A DNA stretch of 64,000 nucleotides from an uncultured Candidatus Saccharibacteria bacterium (GCA_964599405.1 CAZRED010000001.1:11528-75527), one strand, 5' to 3'; numbered from the stretch's first letter, positions 7,676 to 36,180 are shown. Notes: generated from the letters alone by a model not told the origin. A program made the numbers and translations.

Positions 7676-7692
7676 TAGTATAGCTGATACAA

Positions 7693-8838: not shown

Positions 8839-8865
8839 TTTCCCCGCCAACCAGGTTGGGCTACA

Positions 8866-10626: not shown

Positions 10627-11371
10627 CGACGTTTTTCAGCAACAGTAAGACTGTCAGTGGCCCGACGGCACCGCGCTTTGGCGTAATTAATTTAACCGCT
10701 TTTTCGACTGACTCGAAGTCCACATCAACCCCGGAAGCGTCGACAACCGTCATGTTTTCGGTAACAAAATCGGCCGTGACTAATTTTTCTACGCCGGTAG
10801 CAGTAATTAAAATATCGAAAGTTTTAATTTTTGCGGTTTCGTTTTCAGCCTTGCTGACAATCTGTTCATAGGGCCAGCTGTTGCGCTGAAACATTTCTGC
10901 CAACGGCTTACCAACCAATCGGCCAGCGCCTAAAATTACTGTATTGGATTTTTTTAAATTCAGGCCGTTACGCTCCAGCAGCATCACAATGCCGGTAGGT
11001 GTGGGAGGGGGAAAATTTTCCGAAATTAGCCCGTCGACATCTTTACTTGGCTCTATTTGCGAGAGAATTCGCTCGGTCTTAACATTTTTTGGCAGCGGTA
11101 GCTGCACAACAATTCCATCAATTTTTTTGTTTTCGTTCAAGCTGGCAATTAACGCTGATAGCTGGCGTTCGGCGGCGCGTTCGAAATGGTGGAGCTGGAA
11201 TTCAATCCCCAGCTCCAGTGCTTTTTTCTGTTTGGCACGGACAAACTTTTCCGTTTGTTTGTCGTTACCCACCCAAATCAACGACAGTTGTGGTGCGCGC
11301 TCCAAATTCTGGCGCGTTAGCAGAATTTCTTCTGTTAGCACGTCTAGTGCTTCCGTTGCGGACAGCAACAT
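10574..11371 (-). CDS. folD: bifunctional methylenetetrahydrofolate dehydrogenase/cyclohydrolase
   Basis: VGNDKQTEKFVRAKQK...DGIVVQLPLPKNV...ILGAGRLVGKPLA; 3' end overlaps thrS 3' end by 53 nt on the opposite strand. Confidence 0.85.
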   Translation of the reverse strand: MLLSATEALDVLTEEILLTRQNLERAPQLSLIWVGNDKQTEKFVRAKQKKALELGIEFQLHHFERAAERQLSALIASLNENKKIDGIVVQLPLPKNVKTERILSQIEPSKDVDGLISENFPPPTPTGIVMLLERNGLNLKKSNTVILGAGRLVGKPLAEMFQRNSWPYEQIVSKAENETAKIKTFDILITATGVEKLVTADFVTENMTVVDASGVDVDFESVEKAVKLITPKRGAVGPLTVLLLLKNVVSSSELQQDSSKRNRPV

Positions 11372-12012
11372 CAGCTAGTTGGAGTAAGCTCGGCAAGTTT
11401 GCGGTTGATAATTTCCTGCCACTGATCCATGGACTGTGCCCCAACGATTCGCTCACCGTTGACAAAAAAGGTTGGGGTTGATGAAACTCCGACGCGATCA
11501 GCTTCAGCCTTGTCTCGCCCGATGGCATCAGCCACGGCGGACGAACCGTAATCGTTGCCGAATTTATCCACGTCCATGCCTAATGATTGGGCATAGGCAA
11601 CAAATTGCGCTTTCGGATCGGCCAAACCACTCCACGTTTCCTGTTCAGCAAATAGAATATCGTACATCTCCCAAAATTTGCCTTGTAATCCCGCTGCTTC
11701 TGCCGCTTGGGCAGATTCGTCGGCATTCGGATGGATTGGCAATGGAATGTGGCGGTAAATTAACTGAACGTTTTGTTTGTTATTCTCAAAGCTTTGTTTT
11801 AGGGGCGCCGCGGCCGCTCGACAGGCCGGGCACTGGAAATCGCCGAATTCAACAATTTTAATTGGAGCCTCGTCGCTACCAAGTTTTTGACCAACTGTTG
11901 TATCAATTGTTGCGTTACCGTCAGAAGATTTGCCGCCAAAGACGACAAAACCAACCACTGCCAAAATCGCTACTGCAATCACTCCAACGAAAAACTTTCC
12001 GTCACCGCTCAT
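11371..12012 (-). CDS. DsbA-family thiol:disulfide oxidoreductase (membrane-anchored)
   Basis: N-terminal TM; thioredoxin-fold active site FGDFQCPACR; stop overlaps folD start by 1 nt. Confidence 0.8.
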   Translation of the reverse strand: MSGDGKFFVGVIAVAILAVVGFVVFGGKSSDGNATIDTTVGQKLGSDEAPIKIVEFGDFQCPACRAAAAPLKQSFENNKQNVQLIYRHIPLPIHPNADESAQAAEAAGLQGKFWEMYDILFAEQETWSGLADPKAQFVAYAQSLGMDVDKFGNDYGSSAVADAIGRDKAEADRVGVSSTPTFFVNGERIVGAQSMDQWQEIINRKLAELTPTS

Positions 12013-12424
12013 ATTGAACTCCTTTCAAGTTAGGTAAAAATAGCAAAATTATGGTGATTGTGACAATCGTCAGTGAAACCAAACACCAGGTGCAGTAGGC
12101 GTGGATGAAGAAAACTTCGGCGGCTAGTAGATACAGGCTGAAGGCCAAGCCCAACATTGCCCAGATACGCAGCTCTTTGATTCCAAACCGCTTTCGGAAA
12201 ACAATCATGTATAGCAACCCTAATTGAATAATGTACCAGGCAATCCCGTAAATCGAGACAGGGATGCCAAAGAAATAGGCGTATTTACTGGAAAGGACAG
12301 TTTCGCAGCCACCACCAATTGAGCAAGCCACCGAACTGGGGTCGTAGGTTTTGAAAGTTAAATATATTGATACCGCCAAGCCTAGTGCTGCAAGAATAGT
12401 CAGTATCCGGCCGGAGTTGTTCAT
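12002..12424 (-). CDS. vitamin K epoxide reductase (VKOR) family protein
   Basis: 4-5 TM helices, CSIGGGCETV and HAYCTWC motifs typical of bacterial VKOR; overlaps dsbA-like start by 11 nt. Confidence 0.75.
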   Translation of the reverse strand: MNNSGRILTILAALGLAVSIYLTFKTYDPSSVACSIGGGCETVLSSKYAYFFGIPVSIYGIAWYIIQLGLLYMIVFRKRFGIKELRIWAMLGLAFSLYLLAAEVFFIHAYCTWCLVSLTIVTITIILLFLPNLKGVQYER

Positions 12425-12544
12425 CGGTTTTACTCTATCATCCTTGTTAGCGATAAAAAAGGATGAAGCGAAGCTATCACCGGTTGCCTTCCGATGCGAG
12501 GGGTGGCATAAATGATATAAGCAATGAATCGTTTATAAGACTAA

Positions 12545-13222
12545 ATGAGACTAAACAAATTTATTGCGGCTTCTGGTTTCTGCTCCCGCCGCAAAGCCGA
12601 CGAACTGATTGCTGCCGGTCAGGTGAAAATTAATGGCCAATCCGTTACGACACTTGCTACAATTGTCGACCCCAAAACTGACGAAGTAACCATCAACGGC
12701 CAGAAAATTTCTCACGAAGAAAAAAAAGTTCTGTATTTGCTGAATAAGCCGCGCGGTGTTGTCACTACTGCCGACGATCCGGAAGGACGCAAAACAGTCT
12801 TGGATTTCGTGCCGACGGAGCCGCGAGTTTTCCCATGTGGGCGATTGGACGTGGAGACAATGGGTTTGGTAGTTTTAACCAACGACGGCAACCTCTGCTA
12901 CCAACTAACCCATCCGAAATTCGAGCACAAAAAGGAGTACTTTGTTCAGGGCGTTAGCCGCAACCCGCAGTTCTCTTGGGAGAAGTTACAAAAACCGCGC
13001 ATTCGGGTTGGTTTCGGCCAAGTGGCGATTGACGATCGGAAACTGAAGAAAATGTTTGAGAAAAAAATTGATTTTTGGCTAACCGTGCACGAAGGGAAGT
13101 ACCACATTGTCCGTAAACTCTGCAGTTCGGTTGGTATTGATGTCGTTCACCTTACCCGCACCAAGCTTGGCCAGTACGAACTGGGCGATATCGAGCCAGG
13201 ACACTACCAAGAAGTTTTGTAA
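12545..13222 (+). CDS. S4-domain pseudouridine synthase (RsuA/RluB family)
   Basis: N-terminal S4 domain (MRLNKFIAASGFCSRRKADELIAAGQVKING), catalytic GRLD motif (CGRLDVETMGLVVLTNDG). Confidence 0.85.
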   Translation: MRLNKFIAASGFCSRRKADELIAAGQVKINGQSVTTLATIVDPKTDEVTINGQKISHEEKKVLYLLNKPRGVVTTADDPEGRKTVLDFVPTEPRVFPCGRLDVETMGLVVLTNDGNLCYQLTHPKFEHKKEYFVQGVSRNPQFSWEKLQKPRIRVGFGQVAIDDRKLKKMFEKKIDFWLTVHEGKYHIVRKLCSSVGIDVVHLTRTKLGQYELGDIEPGHYQEVL

Positions 13223-13291
13223 AAATTCACGCGATTACAAATAATACTAATCGAACGAATATGTGTTTAAACACATATTCGTCTAAGATTG

Positions 13292-13363
13292 TGGGGCATG
13301 CTGGAATCGAACCAGCGACACACGGATTAAGAGTCCGTTGTTCTACCGCTGAACTAATGCCCC
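13292..13363 (-). tRNA. tRNA-Lys (CTT)
   Basis: Reverse complement folds as cloverleaf: acceptor GGGGCAT/ATGCCCC, anticodon stem ACGGA/TCCGT, loop CTCTTAA, T-loop GGTTCGATTCC. Confidence 0.85.
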
Positions 13364-13491
13364 GATTAACGTATTAAATTATATCTTTTATCCTTGCGAA
13401 AATGAATAAGGTGGGTACAATTAGCCTGCCTTGTCCGTCCAACGACAAGGGCTAGCCGGACTTTCCTACTGGTCAGTCTCGGTTTTCGATT

Positions 13492-13530
13492 GCGGGGTGA
13501 GGTGCTAGCCTCCCCCGCTTATTCTTTATT
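13492..13530 (+). terminator. GC-rich hairpin plus U-tract; possible terminator of an unannotated small RNA
   Basis: GCGGGGTGAGG-TGCTAG-CCTCCCCCGC then TTATTCTTTATTC; no + strand CDS ends nearby. Confidence 0.3.
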
Positions 13531-13556
13531 CACAACATTTACAGTATCCTTAACGC

Positions 13557-14171
13557 ATGGAATTTTGGGAATGGGTCAAGGGAATTGCTTCGCAGGAAAC
13601 ACTCCAGCATCTCGGGCATATTGGCATCTGGGCGATAATTTTTGCCGAGTCGGGGATTTTAGCCGGGTTCTTTTTGCCGGGTGACAGTTTGCTTTTTACC
13701 GCCGGACTACTGGCCTGGGCCGGGCATCTCAATATTTACTATCTTATTATTGGTGGAATAATTGCCGCCATTGCTGGCGATAGCTTTGGATATTATTTAG
13801 GGCGGCGGTTTGGACCCAGGGTGTTTAGTAAAGAGAATTCAAGAATTTTTCACAAAGACCATATTGAGCGCGCCAAGCAGTATTTCGCCAAATATGGCCC
13901 AATCACGATCTTTTTAGCCCGGTTTACACCGTTTATCCGCACGTTTGCCCCGGTTTTAGCGGGCGTTGGCGGCATGGAGTACGGCACGTTTGTTTTCTAT
14001 AATATTTTTGGCGGTATTTTTTGGGTACTATCAATGACGCTGCTCGGTTACTTTTTGGGCTCGGTGATCCCCGACGTAGACCGCTATGTCTTGCCGATTG
14101 TCGGCGGAATAATCTTACTTTCGGTTATTCCAGCAGTAGTGAGTATTGTTAGACGAAAACCTAAGGCCTAA
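13557..14171 (+). CDS. DedA/SNARE-associated family membrane protein
   Basis: LPGDSLLFTAG...YFAKYGPITIFLARFTPFIRTFAPVLAGV signature. Confidence 0.85.
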   Translation: MEFWEWVKGIASQETLQHLGHIGIWAIIFAESGILAGFFLPGDSLLFTAGLLAWAGHLNIYYLIIGGIIAAIAGDSFGYYLGRRFGPRVFSKENSRIFHKDHIERAKQYFAKYGPITIFLARFTPFIRTFAPVLAGVGGMEYGTFVFYNIFGGIFWVLSMTLLGYFLGSVIPDVDRYVLPIVGGIILLSVIPAVVSIVRRKPKA

Positions 14172-14401
14172 TACGGCAAGGATTGGTCAATTTTTTGCAA
14201 TATTTCACCGATAAACGGGATTGTGCCCAGCTTGCTGACTAAAAATCCCAACAATATTATTATCAGTGCCGCGCCAAGCACACCGCCGATACCGGAAGCA
14301 AAACCGACCAAAAAACCGCGCTTAATTGCATGTGATGATTTGCCGTAGAACTTATCGAGAGCGTGGATCAGTCGCTCAATCTGCTGGTTGTTGTGCTCCA
14401 T
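14168..14401 (-). CDS. small membrane protein
   Basis: 77 aa with C-terminal TM helix. Confidence 0.35.
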   Translation of the reverse strand: MEHNNQQIERLIHALDKFYGKSSHAIKRGFLVGFASGIGGVLGAALIIILLGFLVSKLGTIPFIGEILQKIDQSLPY

Positions 14402-14424
14402 TTATTTAGTGTAGCAGAAGCTAG

Positions 14425-14500
14425 TGGCGCGCCCGGAGGGATTTGAACCCCCGACCCTCTGTTCCGAAGACAGATACTCTATCCACTGAGCTACGGGCGC
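14425..14500 (-). tRNA. tRNA-Arg (TCG), CCA encoded
   Basis: Reverse complement: acceptor GCGCCCG/CGGGCGC, D-arm GCTCAGTGGATAGAGT, anticodon stem TCTGT/ACAGA loop CTTCGGA, T-loop GGTTCAAATCC, 3' GCCA. Confidence 0.8.
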
Positions 14501-14520
14501 GAGCCTACATTTGTAGGTAT

Positions 14521-14683
14521 AAATTACTGGCGAGTGCCAGTAGGTCAGGGGACAAACGCAGGTTTGATCCACTGAGCTACGGGCGCTGGTTGCGAGTTGT
14601 GCTCGCGGCTCGGAGGACAATCGGAAGTTTGATCCACGAAGTGGAACGAGACTTCAGTCGAGTATCCGCTGAGCTACGGGCGC
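14521..14683 (-). repeat. two degenerate copies of the 5' end of the adjacent tRNA-Arg; pseudo-tRNA/remnant repeats
   Basis: Each copy carries acceptor plus D-arm and a shared ~30-nt core (GTGGATCAAACYTSCGWTTGTCCYCYGASCC); copies end at 14586 and 14683; neither folds as a complete cloverleaf. Confidence 0.6.
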
Positions 14684-14767
14684 ATGTTATGTGTTAATTT
14701 TACGATATTTCAGGGGTAAAAGGAATGGCGATGGGCGCAAAAGCGCCCATCGCCTGGATAATGAAAA

Positions 14768-15205
14768 TTACAGAATCTCCGTCACACACCCGTCAAGCGA
14801 GTAATGTTCGGAGTTGTAGACGCTCACCTGTGCCCCCGCTGACACCGAAAGGAAATTTTTTCCCATTTTTCTTTCGGTTGAGCAGAAAACGACGTCAGTA
14901 AGATCGAACTCTTCGGCAATTTTTCCCAACTGATGGTCAATTGAGCTGTGCGATACCGGTTCACCGTAAGACAGATCCCCACAGTTGTAGAGGATAATTG
15001 CCATCTCCCCTTCAGCGGTGGCAACCACAACAATTCTCCCCTCACCGCCCGGCTGCACGAAATTGTCGCGCAGATACGCCCGCAGACTTCTTGTTTCGAT
15101 AGACTTTCCGCAAGCCTCACAAAGTTTCCCGACGAGAGATTGCCGATTCAGACCGGCTCTTTTTCCTGTTAACGTTCCCAGTAACATCCGATGAATCTCC
15201 AACAC
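14768..15205 (-). CDS. hypothetical Cys-containing cytoplasmic protein
   Basis: 145 aa ORF, no family recognised by eye. Confidence 0.4.
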   Translation of the reverse strand: MLEIHRMLLGTLTGKRAGLNRQSLVGKLCEACGKSIETRSLRAYLRDNFVQPGGEGRIVVVATAEGEMAIILYNCGDLSYGEPVSHSSIDHQLGKIAEEFDLTDVVFCSTERKMGKNFLSVSAGAQVSVYNSEHYSLDGCVTEIL

Positions 15206-15261
15206 AGCAAAAGGCCGTGGATGATAAAGATACCAAATATTAAATAGTAAATAAAGGTAAA

Positions 15262-16233
15262 TTAACGGATTTCTTTGGCCTGAATTTTATGATTATCGTT
15301 TAGCGACTCGGTCATTTCGTCTTTGGTCAGCAGTCCTTGCTCCGGACCGATTTTTTCCAGTACCGCAGCCGAGTTGGCCATACCCCAACGCATCGCTTCA
15401 CCGATGTCTTCGCCTTGCAGTAGCGCGGCGGTGAAGGCGGCGGAGAAGGCGTCGCCACAACCAGTTCGCTCCACCACCTTGGCCGGAAAGATGTCGCAAA
15501 ATAACAGCTGGTTGCCGTTGAAAACATAAGCGCCGTTAGGACCGTCAGTGACAATTACTAATTTCGGGCCTAGATCAAAGAGCTGTTCGGAGATCTCTCT
15601 AATGGTGGCCTTGATAGATAGCTCGGTTAATAGCCTGGCTTCCTCAAGATTAACAAACAGACACTCGGTAACTGCCATGACCGGCTTTAATGCTTGTACT
15701 CCGGCTTTAATCTGATGGGTACCGGGGTTAAAGCTAAGTTTAATTTTGTGCTGTAACACAAACCGGACAACTTTTTCGTAAGCTCCAGAAAAAGCCTTAC
15801 CCATGGCTGTCAGGTAAACCCAATCAACCGGCTCAAAATCTGGCAACTGGTATTCGCGCGGGACGTGGTAGACCACGAGAGTGCGCTCGCCCTGGAAAAC
15901 CAGGGCAGTAGCGTAGCTGGTCGGGCCTTTTTCGATAACAACATAACGAGGATCAACGCCTTCTGTGGCAAGTTGTTGGTCGACTAGCTTACCGATCCAA
16001 TCGTCGCCATGCACGCTATAGAGATCGGCTTTGACGCCAAGGCGAGCAAAGGAAACGGCCGTATTAACGGCATTACCGCCAACGTGAAACTGGACATCAT
16101 CGGCCATGATTTTACTGGCATAATTAATGCAGAATTCGCACTTACTTTTATCAATATTGCAGTGGACGTTAGCATCGCTGACAAAAACAAACGAATCAAC
16201 TGTGGCTTCCCCGACCGACAAGACATTCTTCAT
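15262..16233 (-). CDS. PfkB-family carbohydrate kinase (ribokinase-like)
   Basis: C-terminal TGCGDAFSAAF anion-hole motif, GG dipeptide region; start set at MKNVLSVGEA. Confidence 0.8.
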   Translation of the reverse strand: MKNVLSVGEATVDSFVFVSDANVHCNIDKSKCEFCINYASKIMADDVQFHVGGNAVNTAVSFARLGVKADLYSVHGDDWIGKLVDQQLATEGVDPRYVVIEKGPTSYATALVFQGERTLVVYHVPREYQLPDFEPVDWVYLTAMGKAFSGAYEKVVRFVLQHKIKLSFNPGTHQIKAGVQALKPVMAVTECLFVNLEEARLLTELSIKATIREISEQLFDLGPKLVIVTDGPNGAYVFNGNQLLFCDIFPAKVVERTGCGDAFSAAFTAALLQGEDIGEAMRWGMANSAAVLEKIGPEQGLLTKDEMTESLNDNHKIQAKEIR

Positions 16234-16294
16234 CTCTAATAACCGTAGCACAAACCTGTCAGTTGGCTAAGTTATTTGGTAAAATTAGCACCAT

Positions 16295-16367
16295 GGTGCT
16301 AGTAGCTCAGTGGTAGAGCAACCGGTTGTGGTCCGGTTGGCCGCAGGTTCGATCCCTGTCTAGCACC
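16295..16367 (+). tRNA. tRNA-His (GTG) with G-1
   Basis: G-1 + GTGCTAG acceptor, anticodon stem ACCGG/CCGGT loop TTGTGGT, T-loop GGTTCGATCC. Confidence 0.85.
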
Positions 16368-16375
16368 CTAAGGAA

Positions 16376-16864
16376 ATGAGAAAACCGTTAGTAGGCATTA
16401 TTATGGGCTCGAAATCAGATTTAGCAGTGATGGAAAAAGCTGCTGAAGTTTTCCAAAATTTTGGAGTTCTATATGAATTAGATATCGTTTCCGCTCACCG
16501 TACTCCAAAGAAAATGTACGAATATGCTTCTGCAGCTGAAAATCGAGGTATCCAGGTAATTATTGCCGGGGCTGGTGGAGCCGCACATTTACCTGGCATG
16601 ACTGCCGCACTAACAAAATTGCCGGTAATCGGTGTGCCGGTGGAGACAAAAACTATGAAGGGTCTAGACTCATTACTCTCAATTGCCCAAATGCCCTTCG
16701 GTGTTCCTGTTGCAACAGTTGCAATTAACGCTGCTGATAACGCTGCATTACTAGCAGTGAAAATTCTCGCTTTGCAAGACGGTAAGCTTTCTCAAAAATT
16801 GGCCGATTTTTATGAAAATCAAAAAGAAAAAGTCATGGAAGATTCGAAAGTACTGAATAGATAA
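16376..16864 (+). CDS. purE: N5-carboxyaminoimidazole ribonucleotide mutase
   Basis: [11 protein letters not shown]...HRTP...[14 protein letters not shown] signature. Confidence 0.9.
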
Positions 16865-16896
16865 GTATTAACATCGCTCATTATCTGACCGACAAT

Positions 16897-17187
16897 ATGT
16901 TTGAAAAGGCAAAGTACGAGAACTTCTCCGAAGCAAAAATAATAGAAGATCTGGAATCCCATGGTTATCAACCGGTTTCTTTTACAGAAAAACCAAACGA
17001 CTATCTAGCTCCGCATTCTCACAGGGAAAACCATATCCTCGTCGTAATAATGGGGGAGATGAAACTTAAGCTAACCGATGGCGAGAAAGTAATGAAACCC
17101 GGGGACAAGATTACCTTACTATCTGGCACTGAACACGAAGTATGGTTCGGCAACCAAGGCTGCACATATCTCTGGGCTGAGTATTGA
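16897..17187 (+). CDS. cupin-domain protein
   Basis: 96 aa, HSHxxxH..E..G double-strand beta-helix motifs. Confidence 0.55.
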   Translation: MFEKAKYENFSEAKIIEDLESHGYQPVSFTEKPNDYLAPHSHRENHILVVIMGEMKLKLTDGEKVMKPGDKITLLSGTEHEVWFGNQGCTYLWAEY

Positions 17188-17194
17188 ATTAGCT

Positions 17195-19012
17195 TTACTT
17201 CTTAGATTTTGCTCGGAGTGAGCCGTTGAGGATCTTTTTGCGCAGACGCAAAGACTTCGGTGTGGCTTCTAGCATCTCGTCATCTTCCAGGAAGTCGATT
17301 GATTGCTCCAAGCTCAAAACCGTTGCCGGGGTTAGCGTAATCGCGTCGTCGTTACCAGCCGAGCGGACATTGGTCTGTTTTTTCTCTTTAGTAATGTTAA
17401 CTTCCAAATCGTTATCACGTGAATGCAGACCGACAATCATCCCTTCGTAAACTGGTGTTTGTGGTTGAATAAAGGTAATACCCCGTTCTTGAGCATTATT
17501 AAGGCCATAAGACACCGCTTTACCACCAACTGATGCAACTAAAACACCATTACGAAGCTTAGGAATAGCGCTGCCCAGCGGAGCGAAACGCAAAAAGTTT
17601 GTGCCCATCACCGCTGTGCCACGAGAAATTGTAAGTAAAACGTTACGCAAGCCCAAAAGTCCGCGGGTAGTAATTTCAAAAAGTAAGCGGGTAGTGCCGT
17701 CTTCGTTTTCGGTTTGTAGCATTAAGATGCCCTTGCGCTTGCCAACTTCGCCGTTGACGGCGTTGGCAAATTCGCTTTTAACGTCAATTGTTAATTCTTC
17801 CACCGGCTCTTGGACTTGCCCGTCAATCACTTTGGTAATAACTTGCGGTTTACCGACCTGCATCTCGAAACCTTCGCGGCGGAGATTTTCAATAAAAACC
17901 GACAAGTGCAGTTCACCACGGCCCCACAGGATATATTCGTTATTTTCGCCGGATGTCATTTTCAGCGAAACATTCACTTCCAGCTCTTTGATAATTCGTT
18001 CGTAAATTTTTTGGCTGGTAAGCTGGGTGCCTTCTTTGCCGACAAACGGCGAAGTATTGGCCGAAATGGCCATTTTCAGCGTTGGCTCAGCAATCTGGAG
18101 CGTTGGTAAGGCAACGGGCGTAGCGGCATCGGCAATGGTGTCGCCAATTCGACAGTTCTTAATACCAGTAATCGCCACAATGTCGCCGGCATCAGCGAAA
18201 GCCACTTGTGAGCGGGTTAACCCATGCGTGCTATAAACTCGATCAATTTTAGCGTTTTCGCGAAAACCGTCCGGCGTACCGATCGATACGGCTAGACCTG
18301 GTTTAGCAATGCCGCGAGTCACTTTACCGATGGCGTACTTGCCTTGGAAGTTGTCCCAATCCAGGGCGGTGACCAACATTTGGAACGGCTGATCTTTCTG
18401 CGATTGGGGGGCGGGAATATGTTTTAAAATTGCGTCAAAAATCGGCGTTAGGTCGGTGTCCGCGCTGATCTGTTCGCTGGTGGGCAGGTTTTCCCATGAC
18501 TTGCCGTCGCGGCCAACGGCGTAGTAAACCGGGAAATCCAATTGAGCCTCGTCGGTCGCTAGATCCAAAAATAAATCCGAGGTGTCGCGGAGGACTTTAG
18601 CAATCTGGGAGTCATGTTTATCAATTTTGTTAATCACCACAATTGGTCGTAAGCCTAGCTCCAGCGCTTTTTTAAGCACAAATTTGGTTTGGGGCATTGG
18701 ACCTTCTTTGGCATCAATAATTAGCAAGGCGCCGTCAGTCATGGTTAGTGTGCGCTCTACTTCACCACCAAAATCGGCGTGGCCGGGGGTGTCGATAATA
18801 TTTATCTTCACGCCTTTGTAGGTAACCGCTGTGTTTTTAGCAAGAATCGTAATGCCGCGCTCCCGTTCCTGATCGTTAGAGTCCATAATCAGGGTTTGGT
18901 TCATCTCCGCCTCGTTATCGCGGAAGGTGTGCGACTGCTTCAATAGCCCATCCACCAGGGTAGTTTTACCGTGGTCAACGTGGGCGATGATGGCGACGTT
19001 GCGAATAGGCAT
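17195..19012 (-). CDS. typA: translational GTPase TypA/BipA
   Basis: [22 protein letters not shown]-like domain order. Confidence 0.95.
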
Positions 19013-19021
19013 TAGTTTTTC

Positions 19022-20200
19022 TTAGGCGCCAATACCAACAAAGGTCAGGGCTTTACCCTTTTTGTCGGCCCGGCCGGTGCGGCCGATGCGGTGAATATAG
19101 TCGGAATAGTTTTCCGGCGCTTCAAAGTTAACAACATGGCTAACGTTAGGAATATCCAAACCACGAGCGGCCACATCGGTGGCAACCATAATCTGGACGC
19201 GATTTTGTTTGAAGTCGTTCAAGGCTCGTTGGCGCTGGGCTTGGGTTTTATTGCCATGAATGGAAACAGCGCTAAAGCCACGTTCCATCAGAGTTTTCAT
19301 CAGTTTTTCCACACCGTGTTTGGTCCGGCCAAAAATCAGCACTTTGGTGGATTCCGGTTCAGTCAAAAGGTTATGGAGCAAGCTCATTTTGTGAAAGTTG
19401 TCGGTGTAGCGAATCACGTCTTGGTCAACGTTCTGGGCAGTTTCACGTCGTTTAACGGAAACTGACTGCGGATTTTGGGTGAAGTCAGCAATTAAGGTCC
19501 GGACTTCTGGGGTGATGGTAGCAGAGAAAAACAGCGATTGACGTTGTCGCGGTAGCTCACGAATCAGTTTGCGGACGTCATCAATAAAGCCCATCTCCAC
19601 CATCCGGTCGGCCTCATCAAGAACTAGATTATTCACATCAAATAGCCGCATTGTCCGACGATTCAAATGATCAAGCAGGCGACCGGGAGTGCCGATAATA
19701 AACTGGGGATTGCGGCGCAGAGCCTGAATTTGGGAACCAAAGCCGTTACCACCGATGCAAAGCGCAGAATACAGCTGCATGCCCTGCGAGAAACTACGCA
19801 GTTCTTCTTCGATCTGCACGGCTAATTCGCGGGTTGGGACGATAATTAAGGCCTTTTGCGAACGGTCTTTCATGAATTTATGCATTAATGGCAGCAAAAA
19901 CGCGGCCGTTTTACCGGTACCGGTTTCGGCGATGCCGATAACATCTTGGCCGCTCATGACTAGCGGAATGGATTTATCCTGAATTGGTGTTGGTGTAACG
20001 TAGCCGCGAGCGTTTACGCGCTCCACAATTCGGTTGTCCAGCGAAAAATCGCTGAAGCGATGGATAATTGGTTCCGGAGTTGTTTCGCCAACCTCAACCG
20101 CTTTATTAATATAGCGGTCCGGGTGAATCGAACTGGATCGTGGGGAACGTCGTTGTCGACGTCCAAAGCCACCACGGTGGCTTCGTACATTGTTATACAT
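19022..20200 (-). CDS. DEAD-box ATP-dependent RNA helicase with Arg-rich N-terminus
   Basis: Q-motif, GTGKT (motif I), [15 protein letters not shown] motifs. Confidence 0.9.
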
Positions 20201-20501
20201 TTTCTAAAAACAGCCTTTCTACTGTCTACTCCCAGACAGTAGTGCCGCCTTAGAAGGGGCCACGATCCGAAAGTAATTATTTAATTACTTCTTCGCACTC
20301 ATTTCCCTGCGAGTGCGGTTAAAGCTCAACTAGCTTAGCACGAATATTGGTAAATTACTAGGGAGTCACCCCTAAACCCTTGACAGGAGATTTGGTTGGG
20401 TTACACTTGTTCTCGTCTATTTTGTAAGGAGGTTCATTAGAACAACCATCAATATTCTTAGACAAAAATTAGAGAATCTATCAAATAAAGTAAAAAAATC
20501 T

Positions 20502-21437
20502 TTGGCCCCGGTTGAGCGGTATTTTCAGAAAATATCTGTCCGTACCAACCACTTGGCCAATGCGATAATCGTTTCGCCCCAATATAAGCGGGGGATGCGG
20601 TTCTTCAAGCGGTACTCCACCCAAACTAGCTTTGGGTTTGTGATTGCCGTCTTTTTGACGGTGACTGTCGGCGAAGGCCAAGCCTTTATTGTCTCCACCC
20701 CCACCGTGGCTGCCCAACTGGAAAGCCAAAACGACGGCTTTGTTAGTAAGCCGCAACTTTTTGCCGGCCAAACCATTTTAACTGGTGAGGTACAGCAATC
20801 GGCGGCGATTATTTATACGGTGGAAACCGGTGACAATTTGGTGGCGATTGCCGCTCGTTATAATATTAGCGTCGGTTCGATATTGGATGCTAACGACATT
20901 GAGCCAATTAAAGCTGAAACGATTCGCCCGGGTACTGATTTAATTATTCCGGCTGAAGATACGAATACTTCGCTCGCCTGGCTGGATTCAATCAATAAAG
21001 CCAAAGCCGAGCAAGCCCGCTTAGCGGAAGCAGCCCGCCTGCGCGATCTGGCCCGCTCGCGCACCACTTCTACCCGTGTCACTAACATCGGTGGCCATAC
21101 CATTCTTGGTACGATGCGCGGCGGTTACAACGGTGGCTACCCAGGACAGTGCACTTGGTACGCTAACTACAAACGTTCCGACCTGCCAAATGGCATGGGT
21201 AACGGTGGCCAATACGTAGCCAGTGCTCGAAAGTTTGGATTACCAACTGGCACCACCCCCCGTGTCGGTTCGCTAGTGGTTACTAACGAAGCGGCCTACT
21301 ACGGCCACGTTGCTTACGTTGAATCAGTCAGCGGCAGCTCTATCACGATAACTGAGATGAACTACGTCGGCCCGTACGTCGTCAGCCGCCGAACAATTTC
21401 GATCAACTCTCCAGCCATCAAAGGCTACGTTTACTAA
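20502..21437 (+). CDS. membrane-anchored LysM + CHAP domain peptidoglycan hydrolase
   Basis: Signal anchor, LysM (YTVETGDNLVAIAARYNISVGSILDAND), C-terminal CHAP (GQCTWYA...GHVAYVESV); alternative start at 20595. Confidence 0.75.
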   Translation: MAPVERYFQKISVRTNHLANAIIVSPQYKRGMRFFKRYSTQTSFGFVIAVFLTVTVGEGQAFIVSTPTVAAQLESQNDGFVSKPQLFAGQTILTGEVQQSAAIIYTVETGDNLVAIAARYNISVGSILDANDIEPIKAETIRPGTDLIIPAEDTNTSLAWLDSINKAKAEQARLAEAARLRDLARSRTTSTRVTNIGGHTILGTMRGGYNGGYPGQCTWYANYKRSDLPNGMGNGGQYVASARKFGLPTGTTPRVGSLVVTNEAAYYGHVAYVESVSGSSITITEMNYVGPYVVSRRTISINSPAIKGYVY

Positions 21438-21458
21438 TTCTGCTACGCTGAAATCATC

Positions 21459-21950
21459 ATGGAGGGGCAACGCAAAGGATTTTTGCGCAATACCATTTTT
21501 GGCGCTGAAGACAGTTTGGTTTCGACTGTTGGGTTACTTTCCGGCGTCAGTTTTGCCGGGCTAAGTAGCCGGGAGATAGTTATTAGCGGTGTTGTCTTGA
21601 TTGTTGTTGAAGCCCTATCGATGGGTGCTGGCACTTACATTGCTGACGACTCAACCAATCAGCTGGTGCGGCTAAAATCCGAACGGGAAAACCAGCTTTA
21701 TAACGCCGTTGTGATGTTCCTATCTTATATAATGGTTGGACTAATCCCGCTTGGTCCGTACTTATTTAGCGCCGATACCCGCGTGGCTTTCTATTATTCC
21801 TTGGGGGCAACGCTGTTTGCCCTGTTTTGTTTAGGGCTTTTCCGGGGATTTTATGTCGGTCAATCGCTCTGGAAGTCGGCGGTTAAAATTACGATAATTG
21901 GTTCGATTACGGCCGGAATTGGCGTAATGGTTGGGTATTTGTTGCGTTAA
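21459..21950 (+). CDS. VIT1/CCC1-family (DUF125) membrane protein
   Basis: GAEDSLVSTVGLLSGVS...ALSMGAGTYIA motifs. Confidence 0.65.
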   Translation: MEGQRKGFLRNTIFGAEDSLVSTVGLLSGVSFAGLSSREIVISGVVLIVVEALSMGAGTYIADDSTNQLVRLKSERENQLYNAVVMFLSYIMVGLIPLGPYLFSADTRVAFYYSLGATLFALFCLGLFRGFYVGQSLWKSAVKITIIGSITAGIGVMVGYLLR

Positions 21951-28223: not shown

Positions 28224-29429
28224 CTACTCGTAGCGTAGCGCTCGAACCGGATGTTTGCGGGCGGCGCGGAAGGCGGGGAAAAGACCAAAAACAATTCCGG
28301 TTAATGCCCCCATGCCGATAGCTAGCATAATTGTTGAGTTAGTTAACGCTGGCACCAAAGGCGTGAATTTAGCAACAAGAATGGTCGTTCCCCAGGCCAA
28401 CCCCAACCCAATTAACGCACCAACAATCGTCAGCATGATTGATTCAATCAAAAACTGCAGCATGATCGCCCATTCGGTAGCCCCAACGGCCTTCCGAATA
28501 CCGATTTCCCGGGTGCGCTCGGTGACAGTTACTAACATAATATTGGAGATTCCAATACCGCCAACCAGCAGGGAAATAGCGGCAATGCCAACTACGGCGT
28601 ATTTCAATATGTCGGTAATTTGGGTCACGGAGCCAAGCAGGTCGCTAGATAGTAGAACTGTAAAGTCTGTCGTGCCATGTTTTTTTGTTAATAAGCCAGT
28701 AACTTCGATTTTGGCGGCCTCGACATTGTCGATGTCTTTAGCCTGAACCAGGATCCGACTAACTTGGTTGGATTGGTTGATCTCGCTAGCTAATGTTGCT
28801 GGAATAATTGCCATCTCACCGCTATCGCCAAAGTTCAGCCCGCCGTTTTCCGGCGCGGCGTAAATACCTGCAACGGTAAACTTTTCCGTTCCCAGTTCAA
28901 CTTCAGAACCAATCTCTACTCCTAGCTTTGTGGCGGACGCGGCAGTGATGAAAATCACTTTTTCATTGTCGGCAACGTCGGCTTCAGTCATCTCTCGTCC
29001 ACTTTGCAGATTTTTCAACCCCAGGTTTTCTGGTAGCCCCGGTGTCACGCCCATCGGCAAAACAGTAACTTTTTTATCGCCGTGGCGCAGAATACCGCCC
29101 AAAATCACGGCGTAATCAACCTGGTCTTCGATGGTGGTAGCGTTGGCTTTGAGGTAACCCACATCCTCCACAAAGATCGTTGATGGGGCGAATTGGGCAG
29201 TGAAATTCGGGGTTGAAGCGCCTTCCTCTGTTTCGCCCGGCAAAACAAATATCGCTCGCGGACCGAGGCCTTCGACTTGGTCGGCAATCTGTGCCTGGAT
29301 ACCCTGGGCCAGCGATAGCAGTGTGACAACGGCATAAATGCCAATGACCATACCCAGTAAGGTTAGAAAGCTGCGCATTTTATTAGACCACAAAGATTTT
29401 GAGGCGGTTTTGAAAGCTTCGTACCACAT
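28224..29429 (-). CDS. MacB/FtsX-type ABC transporter permease with large extracytoplasmic domain
   Basis: N-terminal TM, ~250-aa external domain, C-terminal three TM FtsX-like core. Confidence 0.8.
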   Translation of the reverse strand: MWYEAFKTASKSLWSNKMRSFLTLLGMVIGIYAVVTLLSLAQGIQAQIADQVEGLGPRAIFVLPGETEEGASTPNFTAQFAPSTIFVEDVGYLKANATTIEDQVDYAVILGGILRHGDKKVTVLPMGVTPGLPENLGLKNLQSGREMTEADVADNEKVIFITAASATKLGVEIGSEVELGTEKFTVAGIYAAPENGGLNFGDSGEMAIIPATLASEINQSNQVSRILVQAKDIDNVEAAKIEVTGLLTKKHGTTDFTVLLSSDLLGSVTQITDILKYAVVGIAAISLLVGGIGISNIMLVTVTERTREIGIRKAVGATEWAIMLQFLIESIMLTIVGALIGLGLAWGTTILVAKFTPLVPALTNSTIMLAIGMGALTGIVFGLFPAFRAARKHPVRALRYE

Positions 29430-30088
29430 TACTTGTCCCCCACAATTACGCCGTCACGCATTAAGATAGTCCGGCTGGCGTAGCTAAGCAGCTCGTTATT
29501 ATGTGTCACAAACAAAATAGTTTTGCCCTTTTGGTTGATACCTTTGAGGATTTCCATAATTTCCGTGCCGGTTTTAGTGTCCAAGTTGCCGGTCGGTTCA
29601 TCGGCCAAAATTACTTCTGGCTCGGCTACTAAGGCTCGGGCAATTGCCACGCGTTGCTGCTGGCCGCCGGAGAGTTGGTTGGGCGCTTGTTTAATTTTGT
29701 CGCTTAAACCCACTTCTCCGAGCATTTTCAAAACCCGTTCGTGCTTGCCACTGCCGCCACGATAGTTGAGTGGAAGCATGACGTTGTCAAAGGCGGATGT
29801 GCGCGGCAGCAGGTTGAACGATTGGAAAACAAAACCGAAATGCTGGTTACGCAATTTTGCGCGCTCTTTGCCGGAGGTTTCATTAACTTTTTTATCGTTC
29901 AGCAAATATTCACCACTGTCTGGCACGTCCAGCAATCCTAAAATGTTGAGAAGCGTAGATTTACCGCAGCCGCTCGGACCCATAATCGCTACAAACTCGC
30001 CATCGGCAATTTTTAAATTAATGTCTTTGAGGGCGGTGGTTTCTTCACCATCAGTATAGACCCGGGAAATGTTTTTCAGCTCCAGCAT
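29429..30088 (-). CDS. ABC transporter ATP-binding protein (MacB/LolD-like)
   Basis: Walker [10 protein letters not shown], signature [15 protein letters not shown], Walker [12 protein letters not shown]. Confidence 0.9.
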
Positions 30089-33017: not shown

Positions 33018-33632
33018 ATGAACGAAGCAGAAGTACTTACAATTTTCAATGAAGTTGGGACGATTATCACCGGCCACTACATCTTCACTTCTGGAATGCA
33101 CGGCAAGACCTACGTTAACAAAGACGCGATCTACCCGTACACGGCTAAAGTTTCGCGACTCTGCTTGAGCTTGGCTGGGGAGTTCACGAGTAGTAAGGTC
33201 GACACTATCGTCGCTCCGGCCATTGGTGCCATTGTTCTGTCGCAGTGGACAGCTCACCACTTAAGCGGCTTAATCGGCCGGGAAATACTAGCAGCCTACG
33301 CCGAGAAGGATGAAGACGGCTTTATGGCCATTAATCGCGGTTACGATAAGCTCGTCACCGGCAAAAACGTCCTGGTAGTGGAGGATGTCCTCAACACCGG
33401 CGGCTCGGCAAGGAGAGTGGTTGAAGCGGTTCGAGCGATTGGTGGTAATGTGGTTGGCGTCGGCGCGCTCTGCAATCGCGGCGGAGTGACTGTAGAAATG
33501 ATTGGAGACGTTCCAAAACTTATCAGTCTCACTAACCTAAACTTTGAAAAGTGGGAAAGAGACGACTGCCCGCTCTGCAAACAAAACATCCCAATTAACG
33601 AATACTTCGGAAAAGGCTGCAAGTTTGCGTAA
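33018..33632 (+). CDS. type I phosphoribosyltransferase (orotate PRTase-like) with extra C-terminal CxxC
   Basis: PRPP-binding loop VLVVEDVLNTGGSA; N-terminal GHYIFTSGMHGKTYVNKDAIY like PyrE; C-terminal DDCPLCKQ not typical of PyrE. Confidence 0.65.
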   Translation: MNEAEVLTIFNEVGTIITGHYIFTSGMHGKTYVNKDAIYPYTAKVSRLCLSLAGEFTSSKVDTIVAPAIGAIVLSQWTAHHLSGLIGREILAAYAEKDEDGFMAINRGYDKLVTGKNVLVVEDVLNTGGSARRVVEAVRAIGGNVVGVGALCNRGGVTVEMIGDVPKLISLTNLNFEKWERDDCPLCKQNIPINEYFGKGCKFA

Positions 33633-33670
33633 TGTCAGCAACAGCAAGCACTCTGAGGTTAGTTTCTATC

Positions 33671-33700
33671 GGCCGTCATCGCAAGATGACGGCCTTTTTT
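33671..33700 (+). terminator. rho-independent terminator
   Basis: GGCCGTCATC-GCAA-GATGACGGCC then TTTTTT. Confidence 0.85.
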
Positions 33701-33710
33701 CTTTTGCCTA

Positions 33711-33744
33711 AAAAATGCCCCGCCGGTTGGAAAGCGGCGGGGCT
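33711..33744 (-). terminator. rho-independent terminator for the minus-strand gene ending at 33780
   Basis: GCCCCGCCG-loop-CGGCGGGGC followed by TTTTTT on the minus strand. Confidence 0.7.
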
Positions 33745-33779
33745 ATTCGTTAGACTAGTACGTTGCGGTAGTAAAAGTG

Positions 33780-34379
33780 CTATGCCTGGGGCGGGGTGGG
33801 TGGGTCGCTCTTGCGGCCGTGCTGCAAATCTATCACCCGACGACGGGTGTCGTAGAGCATGATCAGAATTAAAATCAGTAAGAAAAAAGACGGGATGACA
33901 AAATAAGTTAGTAAGGCGCTAGTTTCGCCACTGGTACCGGAGAAGAATTCAAAGACGCCCCGGTCAGTATCGTCGGTAGTAACTGGCGTGGTTTTGGTTG
34001 GGTCAGTACTGTTAGTTGCTTGATCGGCATCCGTAGCCGTTGTACTAGCCGTCCCATCGGCTGAACTGGTACCGCCGCCGGTTGAGGTGGTGCCGCTACC
34101 AGAGCCACTCGTGCCGCCGCTTTCAGTGGTTCCCTCACCGGTCGAGGTAGTGCCGCCGCTTTCAGTTTCGGGAGTAACGTCAGGGTCGGGTGTTGGTTCG
34201 GGGTCAGGAGTTGGATCGGGAGTTGGCTCGGGCTCTTCGGTAGGTGGCGGTTCACTCTGGGAGGCCGCAAAGAAGTATTGGCGCATTCCGATAGCACCGT
34301 AAAGCAAGGCAATAACGACGATAATTGATAGAACAACGGCGGTAGCACGGCCAGATTGGACAAGTGGCTTGTTCAGCAT
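33780..34379 (-). CDS. bitopic membrane protein with Pro/Thr/Asp and Gly/Thr/Ser low-complexity extracellular region
   Basis: N-terminal and C-terminal TM helices flanking PEPTPDPTPDPEPTPDP and GTTSTGEGTTESGG repeats. Confidence 0.5.
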   Translation of the reverse strand: MLNKPLVQSGRATAVVLSIIVVIALLYGAIGMRQYFFAASQSEPPPTEEPEPTPDPTPDPEPTPDPDVTPETESGGTTSTGEGTTESGGTSGSGSGTTSTGGGTSSADGTASTTATDADQATNSTDPTKTTPVTTDDTDRGVFEFFSGTSGETSALLTYFVIPSFFLLILILIMLYDTRRRVIDLQHGRKSDPPTPPQA

Positions 34380-34455
34380 CTATTAACACTCTGCGCTGGA
34401 TGTTTTTCGTCGTCAACCCTTCGACAGTGCTCAGGTTGACCTTGAGCTTGTCGAA

Positions 34456-34523
34456 AGGTCAAGTTTTAATCAAGCGTTAGCATTAGCGCTTCTCATCTTG
34501 ACTCGGTGTAAAGCTTGCTTTAC
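34456..34523 (+). promoter_or_regulatory. operator-like palindromes in the promoter of the HTH-Hsp20 gene
   Basis: TTGACCTT(12 nt)AAGGTCAA at 34456-34482 and perfect GTAAAGC-TT-GCTTTAC at 34508-34523, 11 nt before the ATG. Confidence 0.5.
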
Positions 34524-34534
34524 ATTACTGTCAA

Positions 34535-35239
34535 ATGACTAAGATCCGATTACTGCTTCGCGAGCTGCGCCAAGCCAACGAATTAAGCCAAGAAGAACTG
34601 GCCCAGGCGCTACAAGTATCGCGTCAATCGATTATTTCGCTGGAACACGGTGAGTATCTGCCAAGTACACCGGTATTGCTGGCAATGATGGACTTTTTTG
34701 GCTGTCCCGTTGACCAGCTTTTCACTGGCTACGAGTTCAAAATTCGCCAAATAACTAACGATCAACCGGAGGAAGGGGTTGAGCAGACAATGCAACAAAC
34801 ACCAACCAATAATCCATTCAGCCAATTGGACCACCTGCATGAAGAAATGAACGACATGGTGGAAAAGACGTTCGGCCGCGGCGATTGGTCGCGCTCACTG
34901 GGCAATGTGGCAGGAGCAATGAACATCCATGAGACAGCCAAAGACTACGAAGTTCAGTTTCAGGTGCCTGGCTACGCTGATGAGGAACTAAATATTGAGA
35001 TCTCTGATAATACCCTGACCGTAACGGGGGCCAAAAAAGCCGCCGAAGAAGAAAAAAGCAAAAACCTGGTTCGCCGAGAGTGGCAACACAGTGAGTTTTC
35101 CCGATCCGTTCGCTTTGCCGCGCCAATCAAAGAAGACAAAGTGGAGGCCAAGCTGGAACACGGGACGTTGACGATTACCGCGCCAAAAGTAGAGCCGGTC
35201 AAACCAAAAATTAAGAAGATTTCAGTGAAAAAGAAGTAA
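34535..35239 (+). CDS. HTH (XRE/Cro-C1 type) domain fused to Hsp20/alpha-crystallin domain
   Basis: N-term LRELRQANELSQEELAQALQVSRQSIISLEHGEYLPS; C-term ACD (DYEVQFQVPGYADEELNIEISDNTLTVTG...REWQHSEFSRSVRFAAPI...AKLEHGTLTITAPK). Confidence 0.75.
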   Translation: MTKIRLLLRELRQANELSQEELAQALQVSRQSIISLEHGEYLPSTPVLLAMMDFFGCPVDQLFTGYEFKIRQITNDQPEEGVEQTMQQTPTNNPFSQLDHLHEEMNDMVEKTFGRGDWSRSLGNVAGAMNIHETAKDYEVQFQVPGYADEELNIEISDNTLTVTGAKKAAEEEKSKNLVRREWQHSEFSRSVRFAAPIKEDKVEAKLEHGTLTITAPKVEPVKPKIKKISVKKK

Positions 35240-35245
35240 TAACTT

Positions 35246-35539
35246 CTATTTTGGAGCGTCTTCTTCGAACTGTTTTTTGTAGGCGTCAGGGTCGGTGATG
35301 TTGCCGATGCCAGGGATGAAGTTGGATTCAAATTGGTAGGTGGTTTGGCCGTTTTTAAGGGCTTCCTGGATGGCGATGTTGCGCTGGGTGTTACTGGAAA
35401 TTGGAAGTGGCACCCCTGTTTCACTGGAGCTGAAATGGGCGGAAGCAAAATTAAAACCACCCAGTAGGGCGATTAGCGCCCCAAGGGCAAAAACCGCTTC
35501 GGGTAAATTACTGCGAGATTTCGATTTTGGTGATTTCAT
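35246..35539 (-). CDS. small secreted hypothetical protein
   Basis: Signal-like N-terminus; unknown. Confidence 0.35.
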
Positions 35540-36107
35540 CGCCGACACGAATGGATTGTACCACGTCCACGCCAACAGTTACTTTGCCAAAAATGGTGTA
35601 ACTTTTCGGCAAAGAATCGTTGTCGCCCAACATAATAAAGAACTGGCTGGAGTTAGTGTTGGGACCACGGTTGGCCATTGCCAAGACACCCGTTTTGTAC
35701 CCAGCTTGGTAAGAGGCGGTGTCAGCGTTGAGTTCGTCTTCGAACTCCGGCCCGTATATAGATTCACCACCAGTGCCGTTGCCGCTTGGGTCGCCGCCCT
35801 GAATTACAAACCCGGGCTCCACACGGTGAAATGTCAGGCAGTCGTAAAATCCGTTCTTGGCTAGGGTGGCAAAGTTAGTAACGGTTTTCGGTGCATCGTT
35901 TGGATAAAGCTCTAATTCGATATCGCCCTTGGGTGTTTTTATTACGGCTTTGGTCGCGGAAACTGGTTCATACTTCATGGGTGGGACCTCCTTATTGGGG
36001 TTAGGTTGGCAAGTGATGGCAGTGCTAGACGTATCGCTTCCAGGAGTAAAAATAAATATTCCGGCGATGACGGCCACAACAACAATAATACCAAACCAAT
36101 TTTTCAT
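35508..36107 (-). CDS. cyclophilin-type peptidyl-prolyl isomerase with N-terminal membrane anchor
   Basis: [14 protein letters not shown]...[13 protein letters not shown] motifs. Confidence 0.9.
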
Positions 36108-36108
36108 G

Positions 36109-36180
36109 TGCGCCCACTTGGACTCGAACCAAGGGCCCCTTCCACGTCAAGGAAGTGCTCTACCGCTGAGCTATAGGCGC
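36109..36180 (-). tRNA. tRNA-Val (GAC)
   Basis: Reverse complement: acceptor GCGCCTA/TGGGCGC, anticodon stem CTTCC/GGAAG loop TTGACGT, T-loop GGTTCGAGTCC. Confidence 0.85.

Follow-up and report, generated by a model that had tools for sequence, protein, structure and literature searches.

Known systems and the fusion locus

HrcA with its operator CIRCE and HspR with HAIR are autoregulated repressors that act at an inverted repeat lying over the sigma-70 promoters of dnaK and groESL; GroEL acts on HrcA, and DnaK on HspR. In the RheA-hsp18 pair of Streptomyces albus, the gene of a small heat-shock protein (sHSP) is controlled via an inverted repeat by an autoregulated repressor that is its own sensor. 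The gene analysed here lies at 34535-35239 of a 64-kb stretch of DNA from an uncultured Candidatus Saccharibacteria bacterium (CAZRED010000001.1:11528-75527, below "the window") and encodes a protein in which an XRE-type helix-turn-helix (HTH) domain is fused to an sHSP. We read this fusion, with its CylR2-like HTH and complete sHSP, as an autorepressor and at the same time the repressor of a heat-shock regulon, with a probability of roughly 0.65. It is probably an undescribed heat-shock regulator that combines sensor and repressor in one protein. Comparison of sequences shows the architecture, an operator on the promoter of the fusion gene itself, its recurrence on chaperone promoters of genomes that carry the fusion, and its placement relative to the -35 and -10 hexamers. 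From these we infer that the fusion itself, and not a paralogue, binds the operator, as well as the direction of regulation and the mechanism of release; that the alpha-crystallin domain controls DNA binding is likewise what we infer.

In its logic the fusion resembles both HrcA/CIRCE and HspR/HAIR: the repressor is autoregulated, dnaK and groE promoters carry an inverted repeat, and a chaperone feeds back on the repressor, with autoregulation and feedback being proposed in the case of the fusion. However, it is homologous to neither protein, its operator has a different sequence, and its chaperone is an ATP-independent sHSP that is covalently part of the repressor. RheA-hsp18 shares with it a dedicated autoregulated repressor tied to an sHSP, as well as the inverted repeat, but RheA and Hsp18 are products of two divergent genes rather than one polypeptide, and the operator described here also reaches dnaK, dnaJ, grpE, groESL, and clpB.

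Escherichia coli IbpA represses translation of its own mRNA and of the sigma-32 mRNA, and aggregates titrate it, which makes it an aggregation sensor (bioRxiv 10.1101/2020.04.20.050740; PMC10474464; PMC10410725). Similarly, the fusion would be an sHSP that limits its own synthesis, and relief by aggregates is proposed for it as well. In contrast, IbpA acts at translation on the 5' untranslated regions of mRNAs and has no DNA-binding domain, whereas the HTH and operator of the fusion imply transcriptional control. As for the HTH half, the relevant comparison is CylR2, a protein of 66 aa with no fused domain that receives its signal via the small membrane protein CylR1. In Enterococcus faecalis this dimeric XRE repressor binds the cytolysin promoter (PMC3709268). 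Its HTH is of the same type as that of the fusion, with the recognition helix VSRQTINGIE. The intergenic region between cylL-L and cylR1 (L301 860-880; NZ_CP124896.1, an E. faecalis plasmid) contains a perfect palindrome, TTGTCAAGTGTCACTTGACAA, whose half-sites TGTCAAG and CTTGACA match the operator of the fusion gene at 6 of 7 positions, with a spacer of 5 nt versus 4 nt.

With canonical sHSPs (wheat Hsp16.9, IbpA/B, and Hsp16.5) the fusion shares the N-terminal arm, the alpha-crystallin domain, the arginine of the F-x-R motif, G-x-L-x-I-x-x-P-K, and I-x-V, but it has about 85 extra N-terminal residues with the DNA-binding domain. The logic of a heat-shock repressor and operator with chaperone feedback is known, and the covalent sHSP-repressor fusion and its operator are probably new. 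Full-text searches, whose coverage leaves out most subscription journals, returned no literature on the fusion architecture, the operator, or heat-shock regulation in the Candidate Phyla Radiation (CPR).

Architecture of the fusion protein

The gene and its product are divided as follows.

34535-35239, plus strand: coding sequence of the HTH-sHSP fusion, 234 aa plus stop, ATG start, single open reading frame (ORF)
34556-34720, plus strand: XRE/Cro-C1 HTH domain, residues 8-62 (Pfam HTH_3), with the invariant recognition helix SRQSIISLE
34721-34924, plus strand: linker (residues 63-85) and sHSP N-terminal arm (residues 86-130), according to alignments; low-confidence or disordered in the structural model
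34925-35230, plus strand: alpha-crystallin domain plus C-terminal extension, residues 131-232 (Pfam HSP20, PDB matches, beta-sandwich in the model)
35219-35227, plus strand: C-terminal I-S-V (I-x-I/V motif), with I229 and V231 at least 90% conserved in the alignment

The original prediction placed an XRE-type HTH and an alpha-crystallin domain (at residues ~120-225) in a single polypeptide, and Pfam agrees with it. Both families exceed their curated cut-offs in one ORF: HTH_3 (PF01381) at residues 8-62, with an E-value of 2.6e-13 and 50.2 bits versus a cut-off of 23, and HSP20 (PF00011) at residues 131-232, with an E-value of 3.1e-21 and 75.8 bits versus a cut-off of 20.8. The latter match is full-length, covering model positions 2-102 of 102. 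No stop codon or frameshift was found between the two domains in the ORF at 34535-35239, and the fusion recurs in relatives, which disposes of the possibility, raised in the same prediction, that these are two separate genes. Pfam matches are limited to HTH_3 and HSP20; the Pfam and NCBIfam scan of the protein found no HrcA, MerR, or CtsR domain. In NCBIfam no named family spanning the full 234 aa was found, the matches to Hsp18, Hsp14, IbpA, and assorted XRE families all being below threshold.

The sHSP N-terminal arm starts at an internal Met-Gln (residue 86) and aligns with the arms of ordinary bacterial sHSPs. Alignments of the fusion homologues show motifs of the sHSP type in this arm, P-F and W-x-P-F-R-E ... 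D-R-L-F, and the hallmarks E182, F188, R190, G210-x-L, P217-K218, and I229-x-V231 are kept across the homologues. I-x-I/V is an established oligomerisation motif of sHSPs. By these sequence features it is a whole sHSP (arm, alpha-crystallin domain, and I-x-V) that is fused behind the HTH, rather than the domain alone. In the HTH half, the invariant alignment columns S29-E37 coincide with the recognition helix SRQSIISLE.

Matches to solved structures give the same picture. For the sHSP half, wheat Hsp16.9 (1gme, E-value 2.9e-13) is the closest PDB sequence, and Schizosaccharomyces pombe Hsp16 (3w1z) is matched as well; for the HTH half, the nearest solved relative is CylR2 (2xiu/1utx), with an E-value of 3.5e-8 over residues 8-64. 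The AlphaFold monomer model has predicted local distance difference test (pLDDT) values of 82-90 for the HTH and 76-87 for the alpha-crystallin beta-sandwich, with residues 69-124 disordered. Judged by homology, the fusion descends both from an sHSP and from a CylR2-like XRE protein.

Spread and conservation of the fusion

A search for the architecture in other genomes, as the original prediction had suggested, was productive. The first protein search yielded 135 homologues of the window protein, nearly all of them 200-260 aa long with both Pfam domains. They come from metagenome-assembled genomes of Patescibacteria, "Candidatus Berkelbacteria", and "Saccharimonadales" and are annotated as "Hsp20 family protein"; a protein identical to that of the window is present in public data (P0001). 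A profile of a more distant clade matched 2442 proteins at E<=1e-20, a count that may include plain sHSPs; the best 120 of the 2442 are all HTH_3+HSP20 fusions. Searched exhaustively with HMMER, 1.84 billion representatives yielded 77 clusters (50% identity) at E<=1e-30, mostly full-length matches. Species-representative genomes with the gene number 28 (L001-L027 and L037). An artefact of frameshift or mis-assembly is ruled out, with domain order and length kept in >250 listed proteins and in 27 genomes.

Some members deviate from the common form. A subclade of 199-202 aa (L012-L015, L017, and L189; P0109, P0113, and P0116) lacks the sHSP N-terminal arm by deletion but retains both HTH and alpha-crystallin domain, as well as I-x-V and the operator. 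A distant Berkelbacteria homologue (L037 5968-6396) has the same helix SRQSIISLE, with its sHSP half matched only partially; no operator was found within 12 kb in L037 (<=2 mismatches).

Operator on the fusion gene's own promoter

The region upstream of the fusion gene contains the following elements.

34498-34503, plus strand: -35 hexamer TTGACT (promoter scan, TTGACT-17 nt-TACATT)
34507-34524, no strand: operator, perfect palindrome TGTAAAG-CTTG-CTTTACA, with half-site centres 11 bp apart
34521-34526, plus strand: -10 hexamer TACATT, built by the right arm of the operator (promoter scan and orthologue comparison)
34436-34462, no strand: inverted repeat TTGACCTT-N11-AAGGTCAA with arms at 34436-34443 and 34455-34462, perfect, not part of the system

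The palindrome TGTAAAGCTTGCTTTACA (34507-34524) begins 3 nt past the -35 hexamer TTGACT and covers the spacer and the -10 hexamer. It consists of two 7-bp half-sites of the general form TGTAAAG-N4-CTTTACA; read as an 8-nt repeat, its arms are TGTAAAGC and GCTTTACA at 34507-34514 and 34517-34524, again perfect. The original prediction reported its core, GTAAAGC-TT-GCTTTAC, which is indeed present and perfect. The ATG follows 8 nt downstream of the -10 hexamer TACATT and no Shine-Dalgarno sequence is visible, and for both reasons the mRNA of the fusion gene is, judging by its sequence, probably leaderless or near-leaderless. Among the fusion genes of the metagenome scan described below, the median distance from the operator end to the start codon is about 8 nt.

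A perfect operator lies directly upstream of the gene in 26 of the 28 orthologous loci, down to 30% protein identity, and the operator of L022 has 1 mismatch. In nearly all of these loci TTGAC precedes it by 4 nt (5 in L010), and the operator overlaps the -10 hexamer. When the 155-nt intergenic region was shuffled 2000 times with its dinucleotides preserved, 4% of the shuffled sequences contained one or more perfect inverted repeats of >=8 nt (loop <=20 nt), and 0.7% two or more. Conservation in orthologous sequences is the decisive argument for the operator, stronger than the shuffle statistics. A palindrome conserved over the spacer and -10 hexamer, along with an invariant recognition helix, is what one classically sees with dimeric HTH proteins that repress by blocking RNA polymerase. 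As a phylogenetic footprint on the fusion gene's own promoter, it gives autoregulation strong comparative support.

The 18-nt pattern occurs a single time in the 64-kb window, even if 3 mismatches are allowed. The 378 kb that surround this gene and its orthologues contain no second site with <=2 mismatches, apart from one match in L021, which has 2 mismatches and overlaps the -35 hexamer beside the genuine site.

Several other readings of the region were dropped. The second inverted repeat of the original prediction, TTGACCTT/AAGGTCAA, is present and perfect, but it is absent from the upstream regions of the orthologues, including that of the closest relative L001, and was discarded as an operator. 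An RNA thermometer or known RNA was rejected, since an Rfam search of 33600-35700 returned nothing relevant and transcription is likely to start downstream of the palindrome. Finally, a type II antitoxin of the HipB/Y4mF type was rejected on the basis of a TIGR03070 score of 33 bits versus a threshold of 71.65 and the lack of an adjacent toxin gene.

The same operator on chaperone promoters

Metagenome contigs were scanned for the exact module TTGAC-N4-TGTAAAG-N4-CTTTACA, which occurs at >=120 loci. Among the matches listed there are 122 modules, and the first gene downstream is distributed as follows.

DnaK: 20 of the 122 modules listed
GroES, then GroEL: 13 of the 122 modules listed
GrpE, then DnaK: 4 of the 122 modules listed
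ClpB-like ATPase: 1 of the 122 modules listed
HTH-sHSP fusion: at least 26 of the 122 modules listed
small membrane protein plus ~70-aa XRE cassette: about 45 of the 122 modules listed

The chaperone-linked contigs share the low-to-mid G+C content of the fusion contigs (0.33-0.55 and 0.29-0.50, respectively); the cassettes are often found on high-G+C contigs. L022 and L179 each have, behind the operator, an operon in which the fusion gene comes first and the gene of a ClpB-type disaggregase (Clp_N, AAA_2, ClpB_D2-small) second, in the same orientation.

Assignment of chaperone loci to clades via BLAST of flanking genes failed, as too few genes were in common. With the DnaK of L276 as the query, DnaK proteins were found in genomes whose longest contig equals a fusion-carrying contig in length (803,959; 685,065; 495,617; 253,146; 110,351; 109,143; and 75,148 bp). 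In all six of the dnaK loci taken from these genomes (L294, L295/L296, L297, L299, L302, and L303) a perfect operator lies 40-60 nt upstream of dnaK, 3-4 nt after TTGACA. A site is also found upstream of dnaJ in 5 of the 6 genomes, perfect in L303 and with 1-2 mismatches in the other four. Between the fusions of these genomes and the window protein the identity is 57-64%, which places them in its own clade. For two of the six, fusion and operator-dnaK stand on the same record: NCBI JALHMV010000001.1 carries the fusion with its operator within 61,910-74,605 and dnaK with its operator within 7,635-21,536, and the Logan contig SRR10609163_10918 likewise carries both operator-fusion and operator-dnaK.

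No established heat-shock operator was detected at 42 chaperone loci (279 kb), neither CIRCE (TTAGCACTC-N9-GAGTGCTAA, <=4 mismatches) nor HAIR (CTTGAGT-N7-ACTCAAG, <=2 mismatches), and no hrcA gene adjoins grpE or dnaK at the chaperone loci inspected.

The genes found under this operator (dnaK, dnaJ, grpE, groESL, clpB, and an sHSP gene) make up a classical heat-shock regulon, of which, and of itself, the fusion is most economically the repressor. The autoregulatory XRE-sHSP repressor and one-component stress switch of the original prediction gains support, at the level of sequence, from the footprint on its own promoter and from the operators on chaperone promoters. Its scope has widened, however, beyond autoregulation to a regulon, since the operator is also present on the dnaK, dnaJ, grpE, groESL, and clpB promoters.

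In L181 the operator (907-933, minus strand) has a gene for a 95-aa DUF3467 protein as its nearest downstream ORF, and a DUF3467 gene lies between dnaK and dnaJ in L303 (10115-10396). It may be an additional member of the regulon.

Proposed mechanism and alternatives

In the proposed mechanism an sHSP dimer would hold two HTH domains together. The paired domains would bind TGTAAAG-N4-CTTTACA, a site that occupies the spacer of sigma-70-type promoters and supplies their -10 hexamer, and RNA polymerase would be blocked. In this way the protein would repress its own leaderless gene and, in Berkelbacteria-like Patescibacteria, also dnaK, dnaJ, grpE, groES-groEL, and clpB. When heat or proteotoxic stress sets in, unfolding proteins would engage the sHSP moiety, or its assembly state would change, and the repressor would leave the DNA, inducing the regulon. 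The preferred model is titration, in which the sHSP half would bind to or co-aggregate with unfolding proteins and so deplete the DNA-binding pool. Induced DnaK and ClpB would then clear the aggregates, freeing the fusion protein and restoring repression.

A broader claim, to which we would give even odds, is that such an sHSP-repressor fusion is the master heat-shock regulator of an entire lineage of ultra-small CPR bacteria (Berkelbacteria and relatives). Unfolded protein would be read by the chaperone half, derepressing dnaK, dnaJ, grpE, groESL, clpB, and the fusion itself; TGTAAAG-N4-CTTTACA would be a new element of the CIRCE/HAIR kind, and the system would replace control of the HrcA or sigma-32 type.

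Several observations weigh against the repressor of a heat-shock regulon as outlined. The window has no chaperone gene, according to signature motifs, and only one operator; taken alone, this single operator near the gene suggested pure autoregulation, and it was the metagenome scan that changed the picture to a regulon. The sHSP N-terminal arm is usually the main substrate-binding region, and its loss in the 199-202-aa subclade makes titration by substrate alone less convincing. The N-termini of canonical sHSP oligomers face inwards, a difficulty that titration and an intrinsic thermometer share as regards the assembly state that would bind DNA. In addition, at least one genome of the fusion clade has a paralogous small XRE protein (L295 10163-10369) encoded 2 kb from dnaK; its helix, VRQTIAYLE, differs, and its own promoter carries no operator and instead a different, loosely related repeat.

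Among the alternatives, an intrinsic thermometer survives best, although we consider it unlikely. Here the alpha-crystallin domain would do nothing more than dimerise or oligomerise, and heat would alter the assembly or unfold the protein without clients being involved; architecture and regulon would be unchanged. RheA of Streptomyces and CtsR act as intrinsic thermometers, and the exchange between oligomers and dimers with temperature is an established property of sHSPs. The armless subclade, retaining the HTH, alpha-crystallin domain, and I-x-V, fits this view, as does the need of XRE domains for a dimerisation partner, for which the alpha-crystallin domain is the only candidate here. However, the canonical arm and the substrate and oligomer motifs are retained in the majority of members, among them the window protein and all of the larger clade, and the operon of fusion and clpB, a disaggregase, points to genuine chaperone work on aggregates.

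It is improbable that a separate small CylR2-like XRE protein binds the chaperone operators, with the fusion as a mere target or at most an autoregulator. In other phyla, small XRE genes that combine an SRQTI.. helix with this operator are widespread, from which it follows that the operator specificity is older than the fusion and that a paralogue could in principle be the regulator; in L295 a small HTH_3 gene does lie 2 kb from dnaK. This paralogue, however, differs in its helix, and its promoter lacks the operator. The recognition helix of the fusion is invariant across lineages along with an invariant operator. If the HTH of the fusion did not bind this site, both the strict conservation of the helix and the strict placement of the site on the -10 hexamer of the fusion would be unexplained, and fusion-clpB operons under one operator also speak against a separate regulator. 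The palindrome could also serve RNA polymerase, or else an alternative sigma factor, as part of the promoter, and the HTH could have an unrelated target, as its fixed distance from TTGAC and its supply of the -10 hexamer would allow, but this is highly improbable given its perfect two-fold symmetry with the 11-bp half-site spacing typical of dimeric HTH proteins, its recurrence, often in tandem, before CylR2-like XRE operons in unrelated high-GC phyla, and -35 and -10 hexamers that are ordinary sigma-70 ones.

If the fusion does repress this regulon, it would represent a minimal form of chaperone-titration logic in one polypeptide. Known examples of such titration are sigma-32 with DnaK, HrcA with GroEL, and HspR with DnaK; they are hard to dissect, with sensor and regulator being separate and their interaction transient. 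The result would also provide a predicted stress regulon for CPR/Patescibacteria, which are mostly uncultured, and lead to reannotation of >100, and probably many hundreds, of "Hsp20 family protein" entries. The compact promoter/repressor module, responsive to proteotoxic stress, may be of use in synthetic biology.

Neighbouring genes

The genes around the fusion include the following.

28224-30088, minus strand: MacB/FtsX-type ABC transporter pair, upstream
33780-34379, minus strand: Pro/Thr-rich membrane protein of 199 aa, divergent neighbour
35246-35575, minus strand: small secreted protein, convergent, downstream
35508-36107, minus strand: membrane-anchored cyclophilin, convergent, downstream
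36108-36180, minus strand: tRNA-Val, anticodon GAC, immediately upstream of the cyclophilin gene and in the same orientation

Both neighbours named in the original prediction, the Pro/Thr-rich membrane protein and the cyclophilin, were found as described. The former has an N-terminal transmembrane (TM) helix, a long low-complexity stretch rich in Pro, Thr, Glu, Gly, and Ser, and a C-terminal TM helix; its adjacency to the fusion gene is not conserved in relatives. The cyclophilin and the small secreted protein are convergent downstream of the fusion gene in 17 of 28 loci, and the MacB/FtsX pair lies upstream in 14-16 of 28, being inverted and displaced in the window. Co-regulation of the neighbours was rejected: the cyclophilin and the MacB-type transporter are syntenic but carry no operator, nor does the gene of the small secreted protein, and the cyclophilin gene is convergent. 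As far as gene order and operator sites indicate, neither the cyclophilin nor the Pro/Thr-rich protein belongs to the system.

Small XRE cassettes sharing the operator

The module TTGAC-N4-TGTAAAG-N4-CTTTACA also precedes two-gene cassettes, where it is often doubled with about 21 nt from start to start. Such a cassette consists of a small membrane protein with 3-4 TM helices and an XRE protein of ~70 aa, in either gene order. Examples with a G+C content of 0.53-0.69 are L184, L188, L203/L227, L213, L221, L229, L256, L258, and L268, and low-G+C ones are L191, L238, L254, and L264. Some of the membrane proteins match DUF2178, with a D-E-R-D or D-E-x-Q-R-R-I-Q motif. Since this layout mirrors CylR1/CylR2, the cassettes seem to encode a CylR-like signalling pair, widespread and so far uncharacterised, with a common operator.

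On two higher-G+C contigs (L258 1-3661 and L233 1-864) the operator cassette stands directly downstream of groES-groEL, in L258 within the order dnaK-groES-groEL. From their sequence, these two loci hint at a link between operator and chaperones outside CPR bacteria. In Glutamicibacter (L028 5448-5482 and L029 5436-5470) two adjacent half-matching sites, TGTAAAG-N4-CTTGACT/CTTAACT, lie about 550 nt upstream of HTH-only homologues that are 51-54% identical to the HTH of the window protein.

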